A stretch of DNA of 64,000 bases from an uncultured Thermoleophilaceae bacterium. Its GTDB lineage: Bacteria > Actinomycetota > Thermoleophilia > Solirubrobacterales > Thermoleophilaceae. The notes beneath the pieces were generated by a model. The model was not told the DNA's origin, did not search any database, and saw only the letters and a list, made by a program, of their open reading frames with translations. The first letter of the stretch is position 1. Every line of letters begins with the position of its first letter. Both the position numbers and the translations under genes were made by a program. This document shows positions 44,231-56,245 of the stretch, in pieces. Location of the stretch: NCBI GenBank assembly GCA_963741455.1, contig CAVUIF010000010.1:183850-247849 (forward strand), given 5' to 3'.

Positions 44231-45070
44231 CTATGCGGGATGAATCGTCTCGACGATGGCCTCGGAGCGCGGGCGGCCGCCGTCGGCGGGTGCGTCGAAG
44301 CTATCCCAGACGAACTCCGGGTCGCGAAGGAAGCTCGCGAAACCCGCGCTAGGTGCGTGAAGATTGAGCCAGGTGGCTTCCCCGGGCCCCTCGTTCCGGA
44401 AGGTGTGGATCACCTCGGGCGGCGCGAGCACGAACGTCCCGGGCCCGGCGGTGATCCGCTCGACCTCGGGGCCGATGCCGAAGTTCAGCTCGCCCGTGAG
44501 GATGAAGAACGCGTCGCAGTGCTCCTTGTGGATGTGCGGCCCCGGGCCCTCCTCGCCCGCCACGTAGCGCGTCCAGGTCACGCACACCTCCGGCAGGTCG
44601 GCGAGTATCCGGATGGTCCGCTCGGGCCGGTCCGTCACGACCTCGCCCTCCTCGGCGAACGCGAGCGCGATCGCATCGCTCGCCGGGCGGCCCGGCTCCG
44701 GCGGGTCGAAGATGTTGTCCGCCTCCTCCGGCGGCCGCTGGCCGAACAGGTACTCGGCGAAGTCCATCGCGGGCGCGTGGATGTTGAGGAAGGAGCCCTG
44801 CTCGGTCGTTTCGTGCTCGTAGCGGTGGATCACCTCGGGCGGGATGAAGATCGCGGTGCCGGCGCCGTGGGTCGCGCGCGTGTCGCCGAGCTCGAACGCG
44901 TACTCGCCCTCGAGCACCATGAAGCCGTCGGCGTGCTCGTGGTGGAGGTGGCGGCCGGGGCCGCCCTCGTTCCGCGAGCGCATGTACGTGAGCACGATCT
45001 CGGGGCGGTCGGCGAGCACCTTCACGGTCGCCTCGGGGATGTCCACGAGCGTCTGGCCGGTCCGTGACAT
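44231..45070 (-). CDS. bicupin-domain protein
   Basis: From ATG 45070 there are two cupin repeats (GPGRHLHHEHADGFMVLEGEYAFELGD...IFIPPEVIHRYEH and GPGPHIHKEHCDAFFILTGELNFGIG...FVLAPPEVIHTFRNE). The upstream 147 aa of the track ORF look off-frame. Confidence 0.7.
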   Translation of the reverse strand: MSRTGQTLVDIPEATVKVLADRPEIVLTYMRSRNEGGPGRHLHHEHADGFMVLEGEYAFELGDTRATHGAGTAIFIPPEVIHRYEHETTEQGSFLNIHAPAMDFAEYLFGQRPPEEADNIFDPPEPGRPASDAIALAFAEEGEVVTDRPERTIRILADLPEVCVTWTRYVAGEEGPGPHIHKEHCDAFFILTGELNFGIGPEVERITAGPGTFVLAPPEVIHTFRNEGPGEATWLNLHAPSAGFASFLRDPEFVWDSFDAPADGGRPRSEAIVETIHPA

Positions 45071-45205
45071 GCGCGCGAGCCTAACCAGGCACCCCAAACT
45101 GCGCAGGCTGGCGCCCATGACCTTGTGCCGTTCGGACGAGAGGGTCATAGTGCTGGGCAGAGCGCCGTACGCTCGCCAAGTCCCCGGCCCAGGACGAGGT
45201 GGGAT

Positions 45206-45538
45206 GTGACCCAGCTGGTCAAGATGGATCTCGCGGAAGGTGGCTCCGTGCTGGTGGAGGTCGCCGAGACGCAGACCGGTCCCGTAACGCGCGGAGGCCG
45301 GGCGGAGGACCTCATCACCGACGCCGGCGCGACGCTCGACAGCGCGCTCGACCAGCTCGGCCCGGTGGTGAGCGGCGTCCTCACGCGGCTGCGCGAGGCG
45401 GCCGACTGGCCGGACGATGTGACGGTCGAGTTCTCGATCAAGCTGTCGGCCGACGCCAACGTGATCATCGCCCGCACCGCGGGCGAGGCGAACTTCAAGA
45501 TCTCGATGCACTGGTCGCGCGCCGCCGAGGGCGGCTGA
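45206..45538 (+). CDS. trypco2-like (trypsin-co-occurring domain 2 family) small protein
   Basis: GTG 45206 is preceded by AGGACGAGG. VTQLVKMDLAEGGSVLVEVAETQTGPVTRGGRAEDLITDAGATLDSALDQLGPVVSGVLTRLREAADWPDDVTVEFSIKLSADANVIIARTAGEANFKISMHW follows the pattern I associate with trypco2/CU044_2847-type proteins. The stop overlaps the CHAT start (TGATG). Confidence 0.65.
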   Translation: MTQLVKMDLAEGGSVLVEVAETQTGPVTRGGRAEDLITDAGATLDSALDQLGPVVSGVLTRLREAADWPDDVTVEFSIKLSADANVIIARTAGEANFKISMHWSRAAEGG

Positions 45539-47905
45539 TGCCCGACACGATCCCCGAGTACGACGAGCTGAAGCTGCGCGTCGAGCCGCGGGGGTCGGGC
45601 CAGTACGACGTGGTGGCGTTCGCCCCGGACGGCGGCACCGCCACCGGTCACTTCGAGTCGCCCATCTCCGAGCTCGAGCTCGACAACTTCATCCTGCGCG
45701 TCGCGCGGCCGCGGAGCGTCCGCGCCTACCACTCGACGCACATGGAGGAGGCGAAGGAGCTCGGGCGGGAGCTGTTCGAGCACCTGATGGTCGACGACGT
45801 GGGCGACGTGTACCACGGCGCGCGCCGGGTGGCGGACACGAAGGGCCGCGGCCTCCGCATATCGCTCTCCATGACGGGCGCGCCGGAGCTGGCCGAGATC
45901 CCGTGGGAGCTCCTGTACGACCCGAGCGAGGCGTTCTTCCTCTCGCAGTCGATCTACACGCCGGTCGTGCGCTCGCTCGACCTGAAGAGCCCGCCCGAGG
46001 CGCGGAAGGTCACGCTGCCGCTCCAGGTGCTCGCGCTGGTGAGCGCGCCCCAGGGCTTCATCGCGCTCGACACCGAGGCCGAGCGGGCGAACCTGGAGCA
46101 GGCGCTCGAGCCGCTGATCGAGAGCGGCGCCGTCAAGCTCGAGTGGCTCGATACGGCGACCCTGGCCGAGCTCGACCGCCGGATCGCCTCGCCGGACGAG
46201 CTCCACATCATCCACTACATCGGGCACGGCGCCTACGACGAGAAGGGCACGAAGAGCGGCATCCTCGTGCTCGAGCGCGAGGACGGGCAGCCGCACGAGG
46301 TGACGGGCGAGGAGCTCGGCGGGCTGATGCGCGACGAGCGGAGCCTGCGGCTCGTGGTGCTGAACTCGTGCGAGGGCGCGCGCTCCTCGCACGTGGACCC
46401 GTTCTCGGGCGTGGCGTCGTCGCTGCTCCGGTGCGGCCTGCCGGCCGTGATCGGCATGCAGACGGAGATCACCGACGAGGCGGCGATCACCTTCTCGGAC
46501 CGGCTCTACACGGCGCTCGCCCAGGGCTTCCCGATCGACGCCGCCCTGGCCCAGGCGCGGCGGGCGATCTTCGCGGCCGGCCGCGAGGTGGAGTTCGGAA
46601 CGCCGGTGCTGTTCATGCGCGTGGCCGACGGGCGGATCTTCGACGTGACCGGCGCTCCCCCGCCGCCTCCGGTCGGGCGGCTCGAGGCGAAGCTGCGCCC
46701 GGAGCCGGCCGCGGTCCGGCCGGGCGCGACCGTCACCTGGAAGCTCGAGGTCCGGAACGCCGGCGAGTCGCCGCTGTCCGACGTGACGGCCCGGGACAGC
46801 GACGGCCAGACGCGCGCGGGGCCGTTCGGGCTCGAGCCGGGCGGGTCGCACGAGTGCACCTGGCCGGTGGTGGTGCACGTGCCGCTCGACGAGACGCGTG
46901 ACGGTCGGCGGCCGCGGCTCGGACGGGCGCGCCGTGAGCGCGCAGGCGGCCGCGCACGTGGGGGTGAACGAGCACACCGAGCGGCCGAAGTGGCTGTACG
47001 CGGGCGCGGCGGCGGTGGCGGCGGTGATCGCGGCGCTTGGGGTCGTGGCCCTGGCGGGCGGCGGGGATGACGGCGGCTCCTCACCGGACGTGCGCGTCTA
47101 CGACGCGCGGGCCACGGACGTGCCCGACCTGGACGTGCGCGGCGACAAGGCCGCCTTCCTGGCGCCGGTCGGCGATGTGGACAGGGAGATACGGCGGCTC
47201 AACCTGGGGAGCGGGGCAATGACTCCGGTCGTCGAGCCCGCCGTGCTCAGGAACCTCGATGTGGGGCTGGACGCCGCCGGTCATGCCCACCTCGTGTACG
47301 CGCGCTGCGACGAGAGCAACTCGTGCGACATCTTCACCAAGCCGATGACCGGCCCCGAGGAGCGGTCGTCGGTGTCGACCCGGGAGTGCAGCGAGGCCCG
47401 GCCCACCATGTCGAGCGGGATGCTTCTCTTCGCCCGCGTGGGCGAGGGCTGCGAGTCCGAGCTGCTCCTGAAGCCCCGCGGCGATGCGCCGGAACGGAGG
47501 ATCGCCGGGGCGACCGCGGGCAACGACCTGAACGACGGCCACGCGGTCTGGCTCACCGGGAGGACGCTCTTCGCGGGGCGTGTTGCCTCGAACGGCACCG
47601 TGACGCCGCAGGGCGAGATGACCGCCGAGGGCGGCGACTCGTTCAAGCCGCCGCTGGTGGTCGAGGACCGATTCGCCTACTTCGTCCACTCGCAGGGCTC
47701 CCAGAGCTTCATCGCGCGCGCGGAGCTGCCGCTGGGCGACTCGGAGATCCAGCACTACGTGCCCGGTGAGAACGTGACGATCGCGGAGGAGTCGCCCCAC
47801 TACGCGGTCACGGCGGGAACGCTCTTCACGACGAACTACCCGCAGCCGAACGGCGACCCGGGCAGCGGAGTGATCGTGCGGATCCGGAACCCGACGTTCG
47901 AGTAG
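45538..47905 (+). CDS. CHAT-domain (caspase-like) protease fused to a beta-sandwich domain, one TM helix and an extracytoplasmic beta-rich domain; either one +1 frameshift at 46895-46897 or two overlapping genes
   Basis: CHAT His/Cys dyad contexts LHIIHYIGHGAYD and LRLVVLNSCEGARS. This is followed by VTWKLEVRNAGESPLSDVTARDSDGQ...HECTWPVVVHVPLDET. After GAG ACG C GTG the next frame continues VTVGGRGSDGRAVSAQAAAHVGV...WLYAGAAAVAAVIAALGVVALAG (TM), then ~280 aa. The original frame decays into Arg/Gly-rich sequence. Confidence 0.7.
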
Positions 47906-47911
47906 GCGGGG

Positions 47912-48839
47912 CTAGCGCAGGCTCTCGAGCGTGCGCGCGAGACCCTCGTCCAGCTCGACCTTCGCTTCCCAGCCGAGCTCCTCACGCGCGCGAGAGGGGT
48001 CGAGGGCGATGTGCTGCACCTCGCCGGGCCGCTCGGGCGCGTGCTCGGGCTGGAAGCCGTCCTCGGCCAGGTCGTCCAGGACCGCGACGATGTCGAGCAC
48101 CGACTTCTCCTGGCCGAGGCCGATGTTGACCGGCCCGCTCACGTCCGCCTCGGCGGCGCGGAGGTTGGCGTCCACGACGTCGTCCACGTAGACGTAGTCG
48201 CGCGTCTGCTTGCCGTCGCCGAAGATCGTCGCCTTGCCGTTCTCGAGCAGCTTGCCGCAGAAGATCGCGATCACGCCGGCCTCGCCGAGCGGGTCCTGGC
48301 GCGGGCCGTAGACGTTGCCGTAGCGGAGCGAGACGGTCGAGAGCCCGTGGAGGCGGGTGAAGATCTCGCAGTACTGCTCGGCGCACCACTTCGAGAGGCC
48401 GTAGGGCGCCTCCGGGGCGCTCGGGTGGTCCTCCGGCGCGGGGATCTGGCGGCCCTCGCCGTAGATGGCCCCGCCGGTGGAGGTGTTCACCACGCGCGGG
48501 ACGCCGTGCGCCTGCGCGGCGCGGAGAACGTTAACCGTCCCCTCGAGGTTGACCCTTGCGTCGTGCGCCGGGTCCGCAACGGACTTGCGCACGTCGATCT
48601 GGGCGGCGAGATGGAAGATCACGTCGGGCTTGGCGCGGCCCACGGCGTCGCTCACAGCCTCGGCGTCTCGGATGTCGATCTCCTCGAGCGTGGCTCCGCC
48701 GGCCAGCGCGTCCTCGAGGTTTTCGCGCTTGCCGGTGGAGAGGTCGTCGATGACGTACGACCTCATCCCCGCGCGCGAGGAGTGCGTCCACGAGGTTCGA
48801 GCCGATGAATCCGGCGCCGCCCGTTACGAGTGCGTCCAT
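47912..48839 (-). CDS. NAD-dependent epimerase/dehydratase (UDP-glucose 4-epimerase-like), apparent +1 frameshift ~48765-48770
   Basis: MDALVTGGAGFIGSNLVDALLARGDEV (Rossmann GxxGxxG) is in one frame, then YVIDDLSTGKRENL...YGLSKWCAEQY (YxxxK)...DGKQTRDYVYVDDV in ORF 47912-48766. Confidence 0.85.
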
Positions 48840-48956: not shown

Positions 48957-50626
48957 ATGAATACTGCCGTCCGACGAATCGCCCTGGTTGCGACTTCTGT
49001 CGCCATCGCCTACGCCGTCGCCGCACCGGCCGCACCCGCCCAGCTCCCCGAGCTGCAGCTGCCGCGGTTGCCCGTGGACGCGCCGTCGCTCCCGTCCACC
49101 GGGCCTGCACCGACCCCCAGAGCCGCGCCCGCGCCTCTCCCGGCGCCGTTGCCCTCACTTCCCCTCCCGTCCCCGAGCCCCGAGCCGTCGATCACGCCGA
49201 TCGTCGACGCCCTGCCGACTCCCGTCGGACCCGGGCCCGGGCCGGTCGGCTCGGCTCCCACCCCTGGGACCGTTCCGCTTCCGGGCGGCGGCGCGCTTCC
49301 AGGCGGCGGCGCGCTTCCAGGCGGCGGCGGGCTGCCGGGCGGCGGCGGGCAGCCCGGCGTGATCCTCGCCCCCCTTGGCCCCGGCGGAACGCTCGTCAAC
49401 ATCGCCTCGGGTGGGCGAGGGCGTGCTTGGCAGTGCGGCAGCGCGGGCGGCGGCCGCTCGCGGGTTCATCGCTCATCACACCCGGCGAGCGCCGCCGTGC
49501 GAACTCGCCCTTCTGGCGCGAGCGGCTCAGGGGCAAGCGGCTGCGCAACCTTCGGGACCGGGTGCTGGCGCACTGGAGCTGCGCCGACGCCGTTCCCGCG
49601 GGCCAGCGGCGAGCGCTCATCCTGCGCGCGGGCCTGTTCGGGCGGCAGCCGGCCTCGTGGCGCGCGATCGCGCGCCGCATGAACGTGACCCTCGCGCGCG
49701 CGGTCCGGCTGGGACGGTCCGGGCTCAAGGGCATCACCTCCGCCCGGATGTGCATCGAGTCCGGTGGGGCGGCGCTGGGCACGTCGGCGGATCCGATCGC
49801 CATCTCCTTCGCGTCCACCGCGGCCGACGCGCGTGCGGGTGACGACGCGGCGGGCGACAAGGCCGGCGTCCTCGGCGTCGAGGAGACGCGGCGCCTTCGC
49901 CAGACCGAGCCACCCGACATGAGCCACGGCGACACCTTCGGCCTCGGCAGGTCGGACGAGGGCGGGCCGGGGATACCGGATGCGCTGTTCGCCCTGCTCG
50001 TCGCCCTCCTGTGGCTGATGCTGGCCGCGGTCTTCGCCATCTACCGGCGTGGCGCGCTCCCGCTCCTGCCGCCTGTCCCGCAGGTCGGACGGTCGGGCAA
50101 GCCGCTGCTCTTCCTCGACGTGGACGGCGTGATCGCGCTGTCGCCGTTCGCGGGTCCGCTTCCTCCCGGGCGCTGGCACGACGCCGACGACACGCAGGTG
50201 TACGTGGCGGAGCAGTCGGGCGAGCTGGTGCGCCGGCTGGCCGAGCGCTACGAGATCGTGTGGGCGAGCGGATGGGGGAAGGAGGCGGGCCGCTTCAGCC
50301 GCGTCCTCGGCCTCGAAGAGGAGGCCCACGCCCTCACCTTCGGCCGCGATGCACGGTCCGACCGATCCGACTGGAAGATCAAGTGGGTTCAGCGAGCGGC
50401 CGGCAAGCGTCCGCTCGCCTGGGTGGACGACACCTTCGGGCCGGACCACATCGAGTGGGGCACCGCACGCGATGCTCCGACGCTGCTCGTGAAGACCACG
50501 CCCCACGTCGGTCTCTCGGACGACCACGTTCGCGAGCTCCTCGAGTGGGCGGACGCGCTGGACCACGCGAACGGCAGGCGCTTCGTGCGCGGCCGTAACC
50601 ACCACAGGGTCGAGGCAGGGCGCTAG
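48957..50626 (+). CDS. composite ORF: signal peptide plus Pro/Gly-rich region, sigma-70 region-4-like HTH, TM helix, HAD-like domain. Two apparent +1 frameshifts (49413-49415, 49462-49464); may be two genes (alternative ATG 49919)
   Basis: MNTAVRRIALVATSVAIAYAVAAPAAPA signal peptide; PLPAPLPSLPLPSPSPEPS and GGGALPGGGALPGGGGLPGGGGQPG repeats. The next frames give GEGVLGSAAARAAAARG, then LRNLRDRVLAHWSCADAVPAGQRRALILRAGLFGRQPASWRAIARRMNVTLARAVRLGRSGLKGI. TM ALFALLVALLWLMLAAVFAIY. HAD motif I LLFLDVDGV. Confidence 0.4.
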
Positions 50627-55120: not shown

Positions 55121-56245
55121 CCGTGGCGCTCGCGGGAACGGAGGACCACCCGCAGGCACGGATGGTGCTGGCTACCGCGCTGGCGTCGGGGCAGCCGTCC
55201 CACGCCTATCTGTTCCACGGGCCCGCCGGCACCGGCAAGCGGACGGTGGCGCGGGCGTTCGCCGCGGAGCTGCTGGCCGAGGGGTCGGACGATCCCGACG
55301 CCGTGCGCACGCGCGTGATGCACGGGGCGCATCCCGACCTCACCTGGGTGGCGCCGACCGGGCGCGCACGTGATGCGCGTGGACGACGTGGAGGGCCCCG
55401 TCGTCAACGCGGCCACCCGAACGCCCTTCGAGGCCCGCCGCCGCGTGTTCGTGCTCGAGCGCGTGGACACGATGAACGACGAGGTGGCGAACCGGCTCCT
55501 GAAGACGCTGGAGGATCCGGCGGCGTACGTGCACCTGATCCTCATGACCGATCAGCTCGGCCGCGTGCTCGAGACGGTCATCTCCCGCTGCCAGCTCGTC
55601 CGGTTCGAGCCGCTCCCGGCGGCCACCATCGCCTCTCATCTCGTGGCGGAGGGCATTCCGGCCGAGCGCGCGGAGGCATGCGCCCGGCTGGCGCTCGGGA
55701 ACGCGGCGCGGGCGCGGTACCTGGCGTCGGCGGAGGGGGAGGCCCTGCGATCCGAGGTGGAGGCGCTCGTGGCGGCCTCGCTGTCCGGAGGCGGCTCGGC
55801 CGGGGCCGAGCCGTGGCGGGCGCTCCTCGACCGGGCCGAGTCGCGCCGGAACGCGGCCGAGGAGTCGATCGCGGCCGAGGCGAAGAAGCGCCTCGAGCTC
55901 GAGCCGAAGGGCCGCGAGCGAAAGGCCATCGAGCGCGAGTACGAGGAGGCGGCGAAGCGCGACGGCCGCAGGGCGCGAACCGAGTCGCTCGACCTCGCGC
56001 TCACGCTCACGGCGCTCACCTTCCGCGACCTCGTCTGCCTCGCCGAGGACGCGCCCGAGGCCGTGCTTGCGTCAGACCACACGCCGTCGCTCGCGGAGCA
56101 GGCGAGGAGCCGCGATCCGCGCAGGCTGCGCGAGGCCGCCGAGCGCTGCGAGGACGTGCGCCAGTCGCTCGAGCTGAACGTGACCGAGGACCTCGCGCTC
56201 TCGGCGCTCAGCTTCAGGCTCGCCGCCCTGGCGGGCGCGCGCTAG
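55117..56245 (+). CDS. holB: DNA polymerase III delta-prime subunit, apparent +1 frameshift at 55360-55362
   Basis: ATG 55117 (ATGA overlap with tmk). SHAYLFHGPAGTGKRTVARAFAAELL...HPDLTWVAPTG, then after ACC GGG C GCG the next frame continues AHVMRVDDV...RVFVLERVDTMNDEVANRLLKTLEDP...ILMTDQLGRVLETVISRCQLVRFEPL. Confidence 0.8.

Follow-up and report, generated by a model that had tools for sequence, protein, structure and literature searches.

What do a small open reading frame (ORF) and the caspase-like protease gene whose start codon it overlaps do together in an uncultured bacterium of the Thermoleophilaceae? The two genes lie on the forward strand of a 64,000-nucleotide (nt) stretch of contig CAVUIF010000010.1 (positions 183,850 to 247,849, assembly GCA_963741455.1), which is called the window here and has a GC content of 72%. 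The small ORF encodes a protein of the Trypco1 family, and the downstream gene encodes a CHAT-domain protease that is joined through one transmembrane (TM) helix to a beta-propeller. The pair is best read, at a probability of roughly 55%, as a two-gene protease-effector module of the Pepco/Trypco class that is built as a transmembrane receptor, with the Pepco mechanism as its model. The class and its logic have already been published; the receptor-like wiring and a propeller that is shared with TIR and Ser/Thr kinase outputs were unexpected. As judged from sequence, the new element is a Trypco1-CHAT pair that carries an extracytoplasmic propeller as its putative sensor and has no nucleoside triphosphatase (NTPase) switch. 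The features involved are listed below, with protein positions in amino acids (aa).

45191-45199, forward strand: Shine-Dalgarno-like sequence AGGACGAGG, read from the sequence, 6 nt before the GTG at 45206.
45206-45538, forward strand: Trypco1 / CU044_2847 ('Pepco'-class) gene, 110 aa, with a GTG start at 45206 and a TGA stop at 45536-45538.
45536-45540, forward strand: TGATG stop/start overlap of 1 nt, in which the A of the TGA is the first base of the ATG at 45538.
45538-47905, forward strand: single CHAT receptor-protease gene, 788 aa after the extra C is dropped; as assembled, it appears as 45538-47070 and 46898-47905.
45760-46575, forward strand: CHAT (clan CD, caspase-like) peptidase domain, aa 75-346, PF12770.
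46714-46960, forward strand: beta-sandwich region that contains the frameshift, with sub-threshold profile matches, conserved in full-length homologues.
46896-46897, forward strand: extra C (ACG-C-GTG) that breaks the frame, an indel relative to the closest contig (L002).
46991-47059, forward strand: single TM helix WLYAGAAAVAAVIAALGVVALAG, predicted N-in/C-out, a hydrophobic helix (H32-53) in the AlphaFold2 (AF2) model.
47078-47902, forward strand: predicted extracytoplasmic beta-propeller and putative sensor of about 275 aa, from AF2 and Foldseek.

An earlier reading of the window by a model that saw only the letters and their ORFs (the original prediction) had labelled the small protein trypco2, and this label has to be replaced. 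The protein matches the Pfam family Trypco1 (PF19493; E = 3.9e-26, 91.9 bits against a cutoff of 24.6, profile positions 2-98 of 98) and the NCBIfam family CU044_2847 (NF041216; E = 4.5e-19, 68.9 bits against a cutoff of 23, positions 1-91 of 91). Trypco2 (PF19631) gave no match to it even at E<=10, a profile on which the Pepco protein of Streptomyces subrutilus (SsPepco) scores 65.6 bits. The GTG start at 45206, the Shine-Dalgarno-like site and the length of 110 aa had been placed correctly. The start is backed by the aligned N-termini of 120 homologues (104-118 aa) and agrees with the gene call on the 97%-identical contig, and the GC content of third codon positions (GC3) is high in this reading frame. 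The ratio of nonsynonymous to synonymous substitution rates (dN/dS) of the gene is 0.12 relative to L002. The predicted order of secondary structure is beta-beta-alpha-alpha-beta-beta-beta, with strongly amphipathic beta strands at aa 69-79 and 89-98, whose beta-moment of 0.70-0.74 compares with 0.78 in SsPepco. A [K/R]98-I99 motif is conserved among the homologues (I in 109 of 121 sequences); about 11 residues follow it, including a conserved W103, and about 5 follow the last conserved position. The protein is regarded as a putative protease-activated membrane effector. A sequence search of the PDB with it returned spurious designed coiled coils only, and PADLOC holds no model for Trypco1 or for the propeller. 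A scan of 44900-48100 for sigma-70 consensus promoters and terminators found nothing, which is uninformative in an actinobacterial genome at this GC content.

The partner is a CHAT protease with an intact active site. Its match to PF12770 is strong (E = 5.8e-33, 115 bits against a cutoff of 24), and the closest solved structure by sequence is the CHAT protein 8tl0 (E = 8e-8). The catalytic contexts IIHYIGHG and VVLNSCEG, which had been proposed for the His and the Cys, are kept: His230 is encoded by CAC at 46225-46227 (IGHG, H230-G231) and Cys278 by TGC at 46369-46371 (NSCEG), and both residues are invariant in a 23-sequence family alignment. The CHAT domain has a dN/dS of 0.16. A proline-rich linker leads from it to the beta-sandwich, which is DUF11/DUF7507-like and gives only matches below the cutoff (DUF7507, E = 0.0054; TIGR01451, E = 0.0027). 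No NTPase domain was found in the CHAT protein by Pfam, and no MoxR/vWA, STAND or GAP1 NTPase is encoded within about 8 kb, as had been claimed. The HetF equivalog NF045509 scores 73.4 bits, far below its cutoff of 1200. The SAVED-CHAT model of PADLOC (PDLC02016) matches the CHAT part only, at positions 104-252 of 498, and the protein has no SAVED domain. By sequence, the locus falls within the Pfam families Trypco1 and CHAT and stands outside Trypco2, HetF, SAVED-CHAT and the NTPase-centred ternary systems.

The stop/start overlap between the two genes had been taken as a sign of translational coupling, and its conservation agrees with this view. A profile pattern scan for the CHAT family in 185,579 species genomes gave 74 loci, mostly in Thermoleophilia (Thermoleophilaceae, Solirubrobacterales), Microbacteriaceae (Agromyces, Microbacterium), Demequina, Nocardioides, Actinoplanes and Chloroflexota. 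A hidden Markov model of Trypco1 that was built from homologues of the window protein was used on these loci, and 28 loci turned out to have a Trypco1 ORF directly upstream of CHAT. These make up about half of the actinobacterial CHAT loci and none of the Chloroflexota loci, a preference for protease adjacency that is strong and not universal. Every one of the 74 loci that carries the propeller of the window has an adjacent Trypco1. The Trypco1 ORF is in frameshifted pieces at one locus (L016) and on the opposite strand at another (L029). Among the 27 same-strand pairs, 13 have the TGATG junction, and the remaining junctions are mostly ATGA/GTGA (4-nt overlap) or a 1-nt spacer before the ATG. 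The same gene order was met in five further look-ups that began either with CHAT proteins or with Trypco1 proteins of 51-55% identity, and one CHAT protein (P0097) was the sole context look-up without Trypco1. Since the pair, the overlap and the architecture recur across dozens of independent genomes, they are not a product of chance. These data support a small-protein/CHAT-protease module that is probably obligately co-expressed.

At the 46 loci without Trypco1, no common substitute partner emerged upstream when ORF translations were judged by eye; the ORFs there are a mixture that includes Der GTPase and helicases, and three Agromyces loci carry a conserved small acidic protein at this place. 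Some variants of the gene order were also observed. At L052 (4728-6827), Trypco1 (aa 86-194) and CHAT (from aa 198) share a single ORF, which is either a natural fusion that supports a functional linkage or an indel in a long-read metagenome-assembled genome (MAG). In Kelch-type relatives (L079-L081, 4330-7514), a 250-aa ORF lies between Trypco1 and an 809-aa CHAT-Kelch gene, while at L082 (4330-7377) Trypco1 is followed by a single 1015-aa CHAT-Kelch protein. Either some assemblies have split off the 250-aa ORF from an N-terminal extension, or it is a true third gene. In Agromyces ramosus (L025, 9197-10981), a second, more divergent CHAT paralogue lies about 100 nt 3' of a Trypco1-linked multi-TM CHAT gene.

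As assembled, the protease gene is split; the original prediction had read it through as one gene on the condition that an extra base at 46895-46897 is an error. The single-gene reading was borne out. The coding frame switches at about 46880-46900, as seen from GC3 periodicity. In a global DNA alignment with the 97.4% identical contig L002 (GCA_033612675.1), the extra C at 46896 is the one interior indel. Over the full length, the corrected 788-aa protein shares 96% identity with the protein of that closest relative (P0001); its identity to 14 further uninterrupted homologues of 791-811 aa is 54-71%. All 15 full-length homologues read ...DE.VTVGGRGSDGR... across the frameshift site. Relative to L002, dN/dS after the frameshift is 0.19 for the linker and TM helix and 0.38 for the propeller; these values are well below 1, which indicates that the downstream part is under purifying selection. 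Other frames in the window are broken as well. The NAD-dependent epimerase gene is frameshifted at about 48757 (48745-48770) relative to the syntenic contig L001; its N-terminal 27 aa, with the Rossmann sequence MDALVTGGAGFIGS and the GGAGFIGS motif, lie in another frame, and the Pfam profile is matched only from position 27 onward. A DNA polymerase III delta' homologue (PF13177) is frameshifted at about 55355 (55340-55365) relative to the same contig, and three indels in all fall within about 9 kb of the window. The delta' gene is normally essential, so its broken frame is hard to square with a living genome. The broken delta' and epimerase frames nearby make a sequencing or assembly error the likely source of the extra C, and several long-read MAG loci of the CHAT family are similarly split. 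From these comparisons, the extra C at 46896 is very probably an assembly error. A programmed +1 frameshift at 46896 was rejected because the orthologues are in frame, no slippery motif was recognised and other genes of the window are also frameshifted; two genuine genes were rejected because of the same intact orthologues and the same further frameshifts.

There are some signs that would fit real damage or real separation, namely a decaying pseudogene or two separate proteins, a soluble CHAT protease and a membrane-anchored propeller. The extra C lies outside a homopolymer (ACGCGTG vs ACGGTG), and a GTG codon stands exactly where the new frame starts. The closest relative P0001 has Cys278 changed to Trp (TGGGGGGGC), and both near-identical copies thus carry a lesion. 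However, no Shine-Dalgarno sequence precedes the GTG at 46898, which counts against a separate protein. Decay is opposed by the dN/dS of 0.38 after the frameshift, by the intact state of all 15 full-length orthologues, by the epimerase and delta' frameshifts within about 9 kb, which point to assembly indels, and by the similar splits in long-read MAG loci of the family. A pseudogene or a pair of separate proteins is accordingly held to be very unlikely. The substitution in the relative is seen at L002 1343-1370, where TGGGGGGGC stands against TGCGAGGGC in the window and the catalytic Cys-Glu becomes Trp-Gly. The change may be an artefact of sequencing through poly-G, or else a mutation that inactivates the protease of that genome.

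With a single gene, the parts of the protein can be placed relative to the membrane. In all 20 of 20 homologues, the 20 residues before the TM helix include 2-5 Lys/Arg, and the Gly/Asp-rich linker behind the helix has hardly any. The propeller contains four invariant cysteines (C137, C143, C164 and C185), and the N-terminus MPDTIPEYDE..., judged by eye, is unlike a signal peptide. The charge bias across the helix, the invariant cysteines and the N-terminus together indicate that the CHAT domain is cytoplasmic and the propeller extracytoplasmic; an N-in/C-out topology with the propeller outside is supported by these sequence signals. Hydropathy-based TM calls over-predict in Ala/Val-rich proteins and were used for the first TM helix after CHAT only.

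The TM helix and the large beta-rich C-terminal domain of the original prediction were confirmed, and the latter can now be described as a predicted propeller fold of about 275 aa. An AF2 model of the post-frameshift ORF from a 20-sequence alignment has a mean predicted local distance difference test score (pLDDT) of 82.8, with values above 90 across most of the all-beta domain. Foldseek against the PDB returned only beta-propellers (TolB, paraoxonase, Sec12, LRP6 YWTD and prolyl-oligopeptidase propellers), with E values down to about 1e-6, TM-scores of about 0.5 and 7-15% identity. The modelled fold is therefore clearly a propeller, and none of the Foldseek matches was recognised as a functional relative. 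Pfam, NCBIfam and PADLOC gave no match to the propeller itself; the only profile match in its ORF comes from NCBIfam, covers the TM region and stays below the threshold (E = 0.015).

The same propeller is also found on other proteins. A HMMER search of 1.84 billion representative proteins gave 41 relatives, 9 of them at E<=1e-30. Beyond CHAT proteins and fragments, these include three TIR proteins (P0250 and P0254 by Pfam, P0248 by sequence) and two Ser/Thr kinases (P0267, P0277). The TIR and kinase versions have the same layout of cytoplasmic domain, basic stretch, TM helix, Gly/Asp linker and propeller with the same Cys motifs. A TIR-TM-propeller gene (P0254, L084 5001-6491) is followed by TPR-S and DUF4231 genes, and a kinase-TM-propeller gene (L085 4770-6740) lies among PspAA/PspAB, LGT and M23 peptidase genes, which are Psp-type and envelope-related. 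The use of one rare propeller on TIR and kinase outputs shows that it is portable and marks it as a putative outside sensor. Conversely, the domain after the TM helix varies within the CHAT family and can be the propeller of the window, a Vgb-lyase/NHL, Kelch or WD40 propeller, TPR repeats or a multi-TM region. A cytoplasmic output that stays constant while the domain outside is exchanged and evolves faster would be the signature of a receptor, and a variable sensor on a constant CHAT module counts in favour of the receptor reading. From these comparisons, the propeller is probably the sensor. The putative outside-in activation that had been proposed earlier agrees with the predicted topology and gains support from the fusions of the propeller through a TM helix to TIR and kinase domains.

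The proposed mechanism can be outlined as follows. The large protein would hold its CHAT domain and beta-sandwich in the cytoplasm, cross the membrane once and expose a disulfide-stabilised propeller on the outer side of the membrane. The propeller would bind an extracytoplasmic cue, which may be envelope damage or a ligand that stems from a phage or from the cell envelope. Clustering upon ligand binding, or a change of conformation, would then pass through the TM helix and switch on the CHAT protease, which would cleave the co-translated Trypco1. The cut would fall most plausibly near [K/R]-I at aa 98-99 and release the last ~11 residues. Cleavage would turn Trypco1 from a latent oligomer into a membrane-permeabilising form, and the outcome would be growth arrest or cell death. 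That Trypco1 is the substrate and the pore-former, where it is cut and what kind of trigger is sensed are inferences, as is every step beyond the domain assignments.

Trypco1 and Trypco2 were described by Kaur, Burroughs, Iyer and Aravind (eLife 2020, PMC7159879) as mutually exclusive neighbours of trypsin-like peptidases in vWA-MoxR (VMAP) ternary systems, while the caspase-type peptidases came with an alpha/beta-hydrolase partner. The window protein belongs to the same Pfam family, which was defined by its co-occurrence with peptidase genes, and it does lie next to a peptidase gene through a conserved 1-nt overlap. In contrast to those trypsin-like partners in NTPase-centred systems, its partner is a CHAT protease, and no MoxR, vWA, STAND or hydrolase gene is nearby. 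Evans et al. (bioRxiv 10.1101/2025.11.14.688446) renamed Trypco1 and Trypco2 as Pepco and treated them as one class, the most abundant protease-associated effector, whose partners are serine or cysteine proteases with a range of fused sensors. In that study, SsPepco formed sodium dodecyl sulfate-resistant 9-10-mer beta-barrels; the characterised barrel is a constitutive 9-11-mer with a hydrophobic exterior and a charged lumen. The trypsin-like protease of Avs4 cut it after Ile97, a conserved Ile at P1, and removed a disordered 2-kDa (~20-aa) tail, and a truncation ending exactly at Ile97 was lethal. C-terminal cleavage thus renders Pepco toxic, and the catalytic residue of the protease was required. 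These results outdate the statement in the original prediction that biochemical or genetic characterisation is lacking; the tested protein is a Trypco2 member (by supplement and Pfam) with the trypsin-like Avs4. Within the open-access literature and bioRxiv, no experiments were found that address Trypco1, a CHAT-Pepco pair or the activation of a protease-effector module from outside.

The pair in the window and the SsPepco-SsAvs4 pair are alike in having a ~110-aa protein directly upstream of, and coupled to, a protease with a variable sensor in an actinobacterial lineage. The two small proteins share their size, position, protease coupling and strongly amphipathic beta strands. However, SsAvs4 is trypsin-like with a cytoplasmic STAND sensor of the phage portal, whereas the window protein is a CHAT protease without an NTPase and with an extracytoplasmic propeller behind a TM helix. 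Bacterial gasdermins are latent pore-formers that are released when a neighbouring caspase-like/CHAT or trypsin protease removes a short C-terminal peptide. Gasdermin modules share this release logic with the proposal, but no gasdermin domain is present here (Pfam gives Trypco1 only). A gasdermin-associated protease whose sensor lies outside the membrane, behind a TM helix, is not known to us. Evans et al. cite the gasdermin pairing. Among membrane-spanning CHAT proteins, the one characterised example found in the literature that was searched is DdvA of Myxococcus xanthus (Sci Adv 2024, PMC11506125), a transmembrane anti-sigma factor with a TPR-CHAT domain. DdvA is likewise a single-pass membrane CHAT protein and is implicated in phage-defence signalling across the membrane. 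Its topology is opposite, with a periplasmic CHAT domain and a cytoplasmic zinc anti-sigma domain as output; its active site is incomplete, and it has neither a Trypco partner nor a propeller. HetF, which acts in cyanobacterial cell division and heterocysts, and SAVED-CHAT share only the CHAT core with the window protein. In working, the module would most resemble the Pepco-protease and gasdermin-protease modules.

The module occupies a stable place in the genome. The order nrdJ, nrdR, bicupin, Trypco1-CHAT and epimerase was found in four related Thermoleophilaceae-type genomes (L001/L003, which are the same MAG contig, L004, L007 and L041), with a GNAT gene where the contig reaches it, and all four carry the same propeller. 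Beside the pair, the window itself encodes NrdJ, NrdR, the bicupin, the epimerase, GNAT and a HAD protein. Identity to the window in the syntenic genomes is 90-95% for NrdJ, 78-91% for NrdR, 67-85% for the bicupin, 76-90% for the epimerase, 60-77% for CHAT, 50-59% for the beta-sandwich and 44-59% for the propeller. The propeller is the fastest-evolving part of the module, and its dN/dS is also higher (0.38 vs 0.12-0.16 for Trypco1 and CHAT). The closest genome loci from the scan are Thermoleophilaceae MAGs with 77% CHAT identity. The shared slot in related genomes indicates that the module is old and vertically inherited in this lineage. The earlier idea of an inserted two-gene cassette is thus contradicted, and a recent insertion or a defence island is ruled out by synteny. 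No mobile-element genes were noted beside the pair and no defence-island neighbours around it. A shorter paralogous type of the module lies beside the mraZ/dcw cluster, which is no defence island either.

Several observations weigh against the proposed module. About 60% of the surveyed CHAT homologues have no Trypco1 within 6 kb, which indicates that the protease can exist without it. The AF2 monomer of Trypco1 is unreliable (pLDDT 47) and too low for use in Foldseek. Homology between Trypco1 and Trypco2 was rejected as an argument, since no Pfam cross-match was detected at E<=10 and hhalign gave probabilities of 1.0% for the Trypco1 profile against the SsPepco sequence and 1.2% against the Trypco2 profile (28-sequence alignment); transfer of the Evans mechanism therefore goes by analogy. 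The order of secondary structure also differs, because SsPepco has an N-terminal amphipathic helix followed by strands (Evans et al.), and the tail of the window protein is ~5-11 residues long against 20 aa in SsPepco. Beyond the partial CHAT-only match, PADLOC holds no model for the pair. Finally, the locus is single-copy and syntenic, with housekeeping neighbours and no defence island.

Part of these data can be accommodated if Trypco1 is a regulator, adaptor, pro-peptide-like inhibitor or chaperone of CHAT, and the protease acts on host or phage proteins or on itself. The lack of detectable homology to the pore-forming Trypco2, the many close CHAT homologues without Trypco1, the very short C-terminal tail and the poor AF2 model all fit such a role, and Evans et al. 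report that an effector-less caspase-like protease still defends. This role is nevertheless considered unlikely, since Trypco1 and Trypco2 take the same peptidase-adjacent position and are mutually exclusive there (Kaur et al. 2020), and the experimental group (Evans et al.) places both in one class. Moreover, the amphipathic strands and the small size fit a membrane-active oligomer, and the tight 1:1 coupling would suit a stoichiometric substrate and be wasteful for a catalytic regulator. The absence of defence-island neighbours and the stable vertical inheritance at the nrdJ/nrdR slot, or at mraZ/dcw for the paralogous type, could also mean that the module is not an anti-phage or abortive-infection system. 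It would then carry out non-lethal envelope surveillance or developmental signalling by regulated proteolysis, as a HetF-type CHAT or in a receptor-kinase-like manner. Purifying selection on all parts, the partial HetF profile match and the presence of the propeller on Ser/Thr kinases beside Psp-type, LGT and M23 peptidase genes are consistent with this. However, the HetF score falls far short of its cutoff (73 against 1200), the propeller is also carried by TIR proteins beside TPR-S and DUF4231 genes, which recall conflict systems, and a variable sensor on a constant protease with a Trypco partner is a conflict-system feature (Kaur 2020, Evans 2025). Such non-lethal signalling is seen as quite unlikely, and the protease-effector module remains the preferred reading.

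If this module works as proposed, it would show that a cue outside the cell can set off regulated proteolysis and permeabilise the membrane in bacteria. Bacterial protease-effector and STAND/Avs-type sensors that were tested in the literature considered here detect phage proteins inside the cell. Unlike these intracellular sensors, the window protein has a putative ligand-binding domain outside, a caspase-like executioner inside and no NTPase switch. The pair would be a compact two-gene system for dissecting the transmembrane activation of a caspase-like protease, and it would open Trypco1 to functional study for the first time, a family that occurs widely in Actinomycetota and resembles the characterised Trypco2 by genomic context only. 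The ligand could be approached through the versions of the propeller that have TIR and kinase outputs. A wider and more tentative possibility is that the propeller-TM unit represents a bacterial family of transmembrane pattern-recognition receptors with three outputs, namely a TIR domain, a Ser/Thr kinase and a caspase-like protease whose Trypco1 substrate forms pores. In that case, the version in the window would be a prokaryotic counterpart of the extrinsic pathway from death receptor through caspase to pore. It would sense threats (envelope damage, adsorbing phages, lytic enzymes or predators, for example) before or without entry into the cytoplasm, and Trypco1 would be a second pore-former that is not detectably related to Trypco2.

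Two minor observations concern the surroundings of the pair. In one syntenic contig (L001 5541-7279, equal to L003 3526-5264), two extra genes of 262 and 316 aa without Pfam domains lie between the bicupin gene and Trypco1 and are flanked by short duplicates of the bicupin N-terminus and the epimerase C-terminus; this block looks like a local insertion or rearrangement. In the window, a Pro/Gly-rich ORF on the forward strand (48957-49682), with a signal-like N-terminus and without a Pfam match, overlaps a forward-strand ORF (49427-50626) whose 399-aa product carries a HAD_SAK_2 domain at its C-terminus. Another frameshift may lie behind the overlap, or the high GC content may have produced spurious ORFs.

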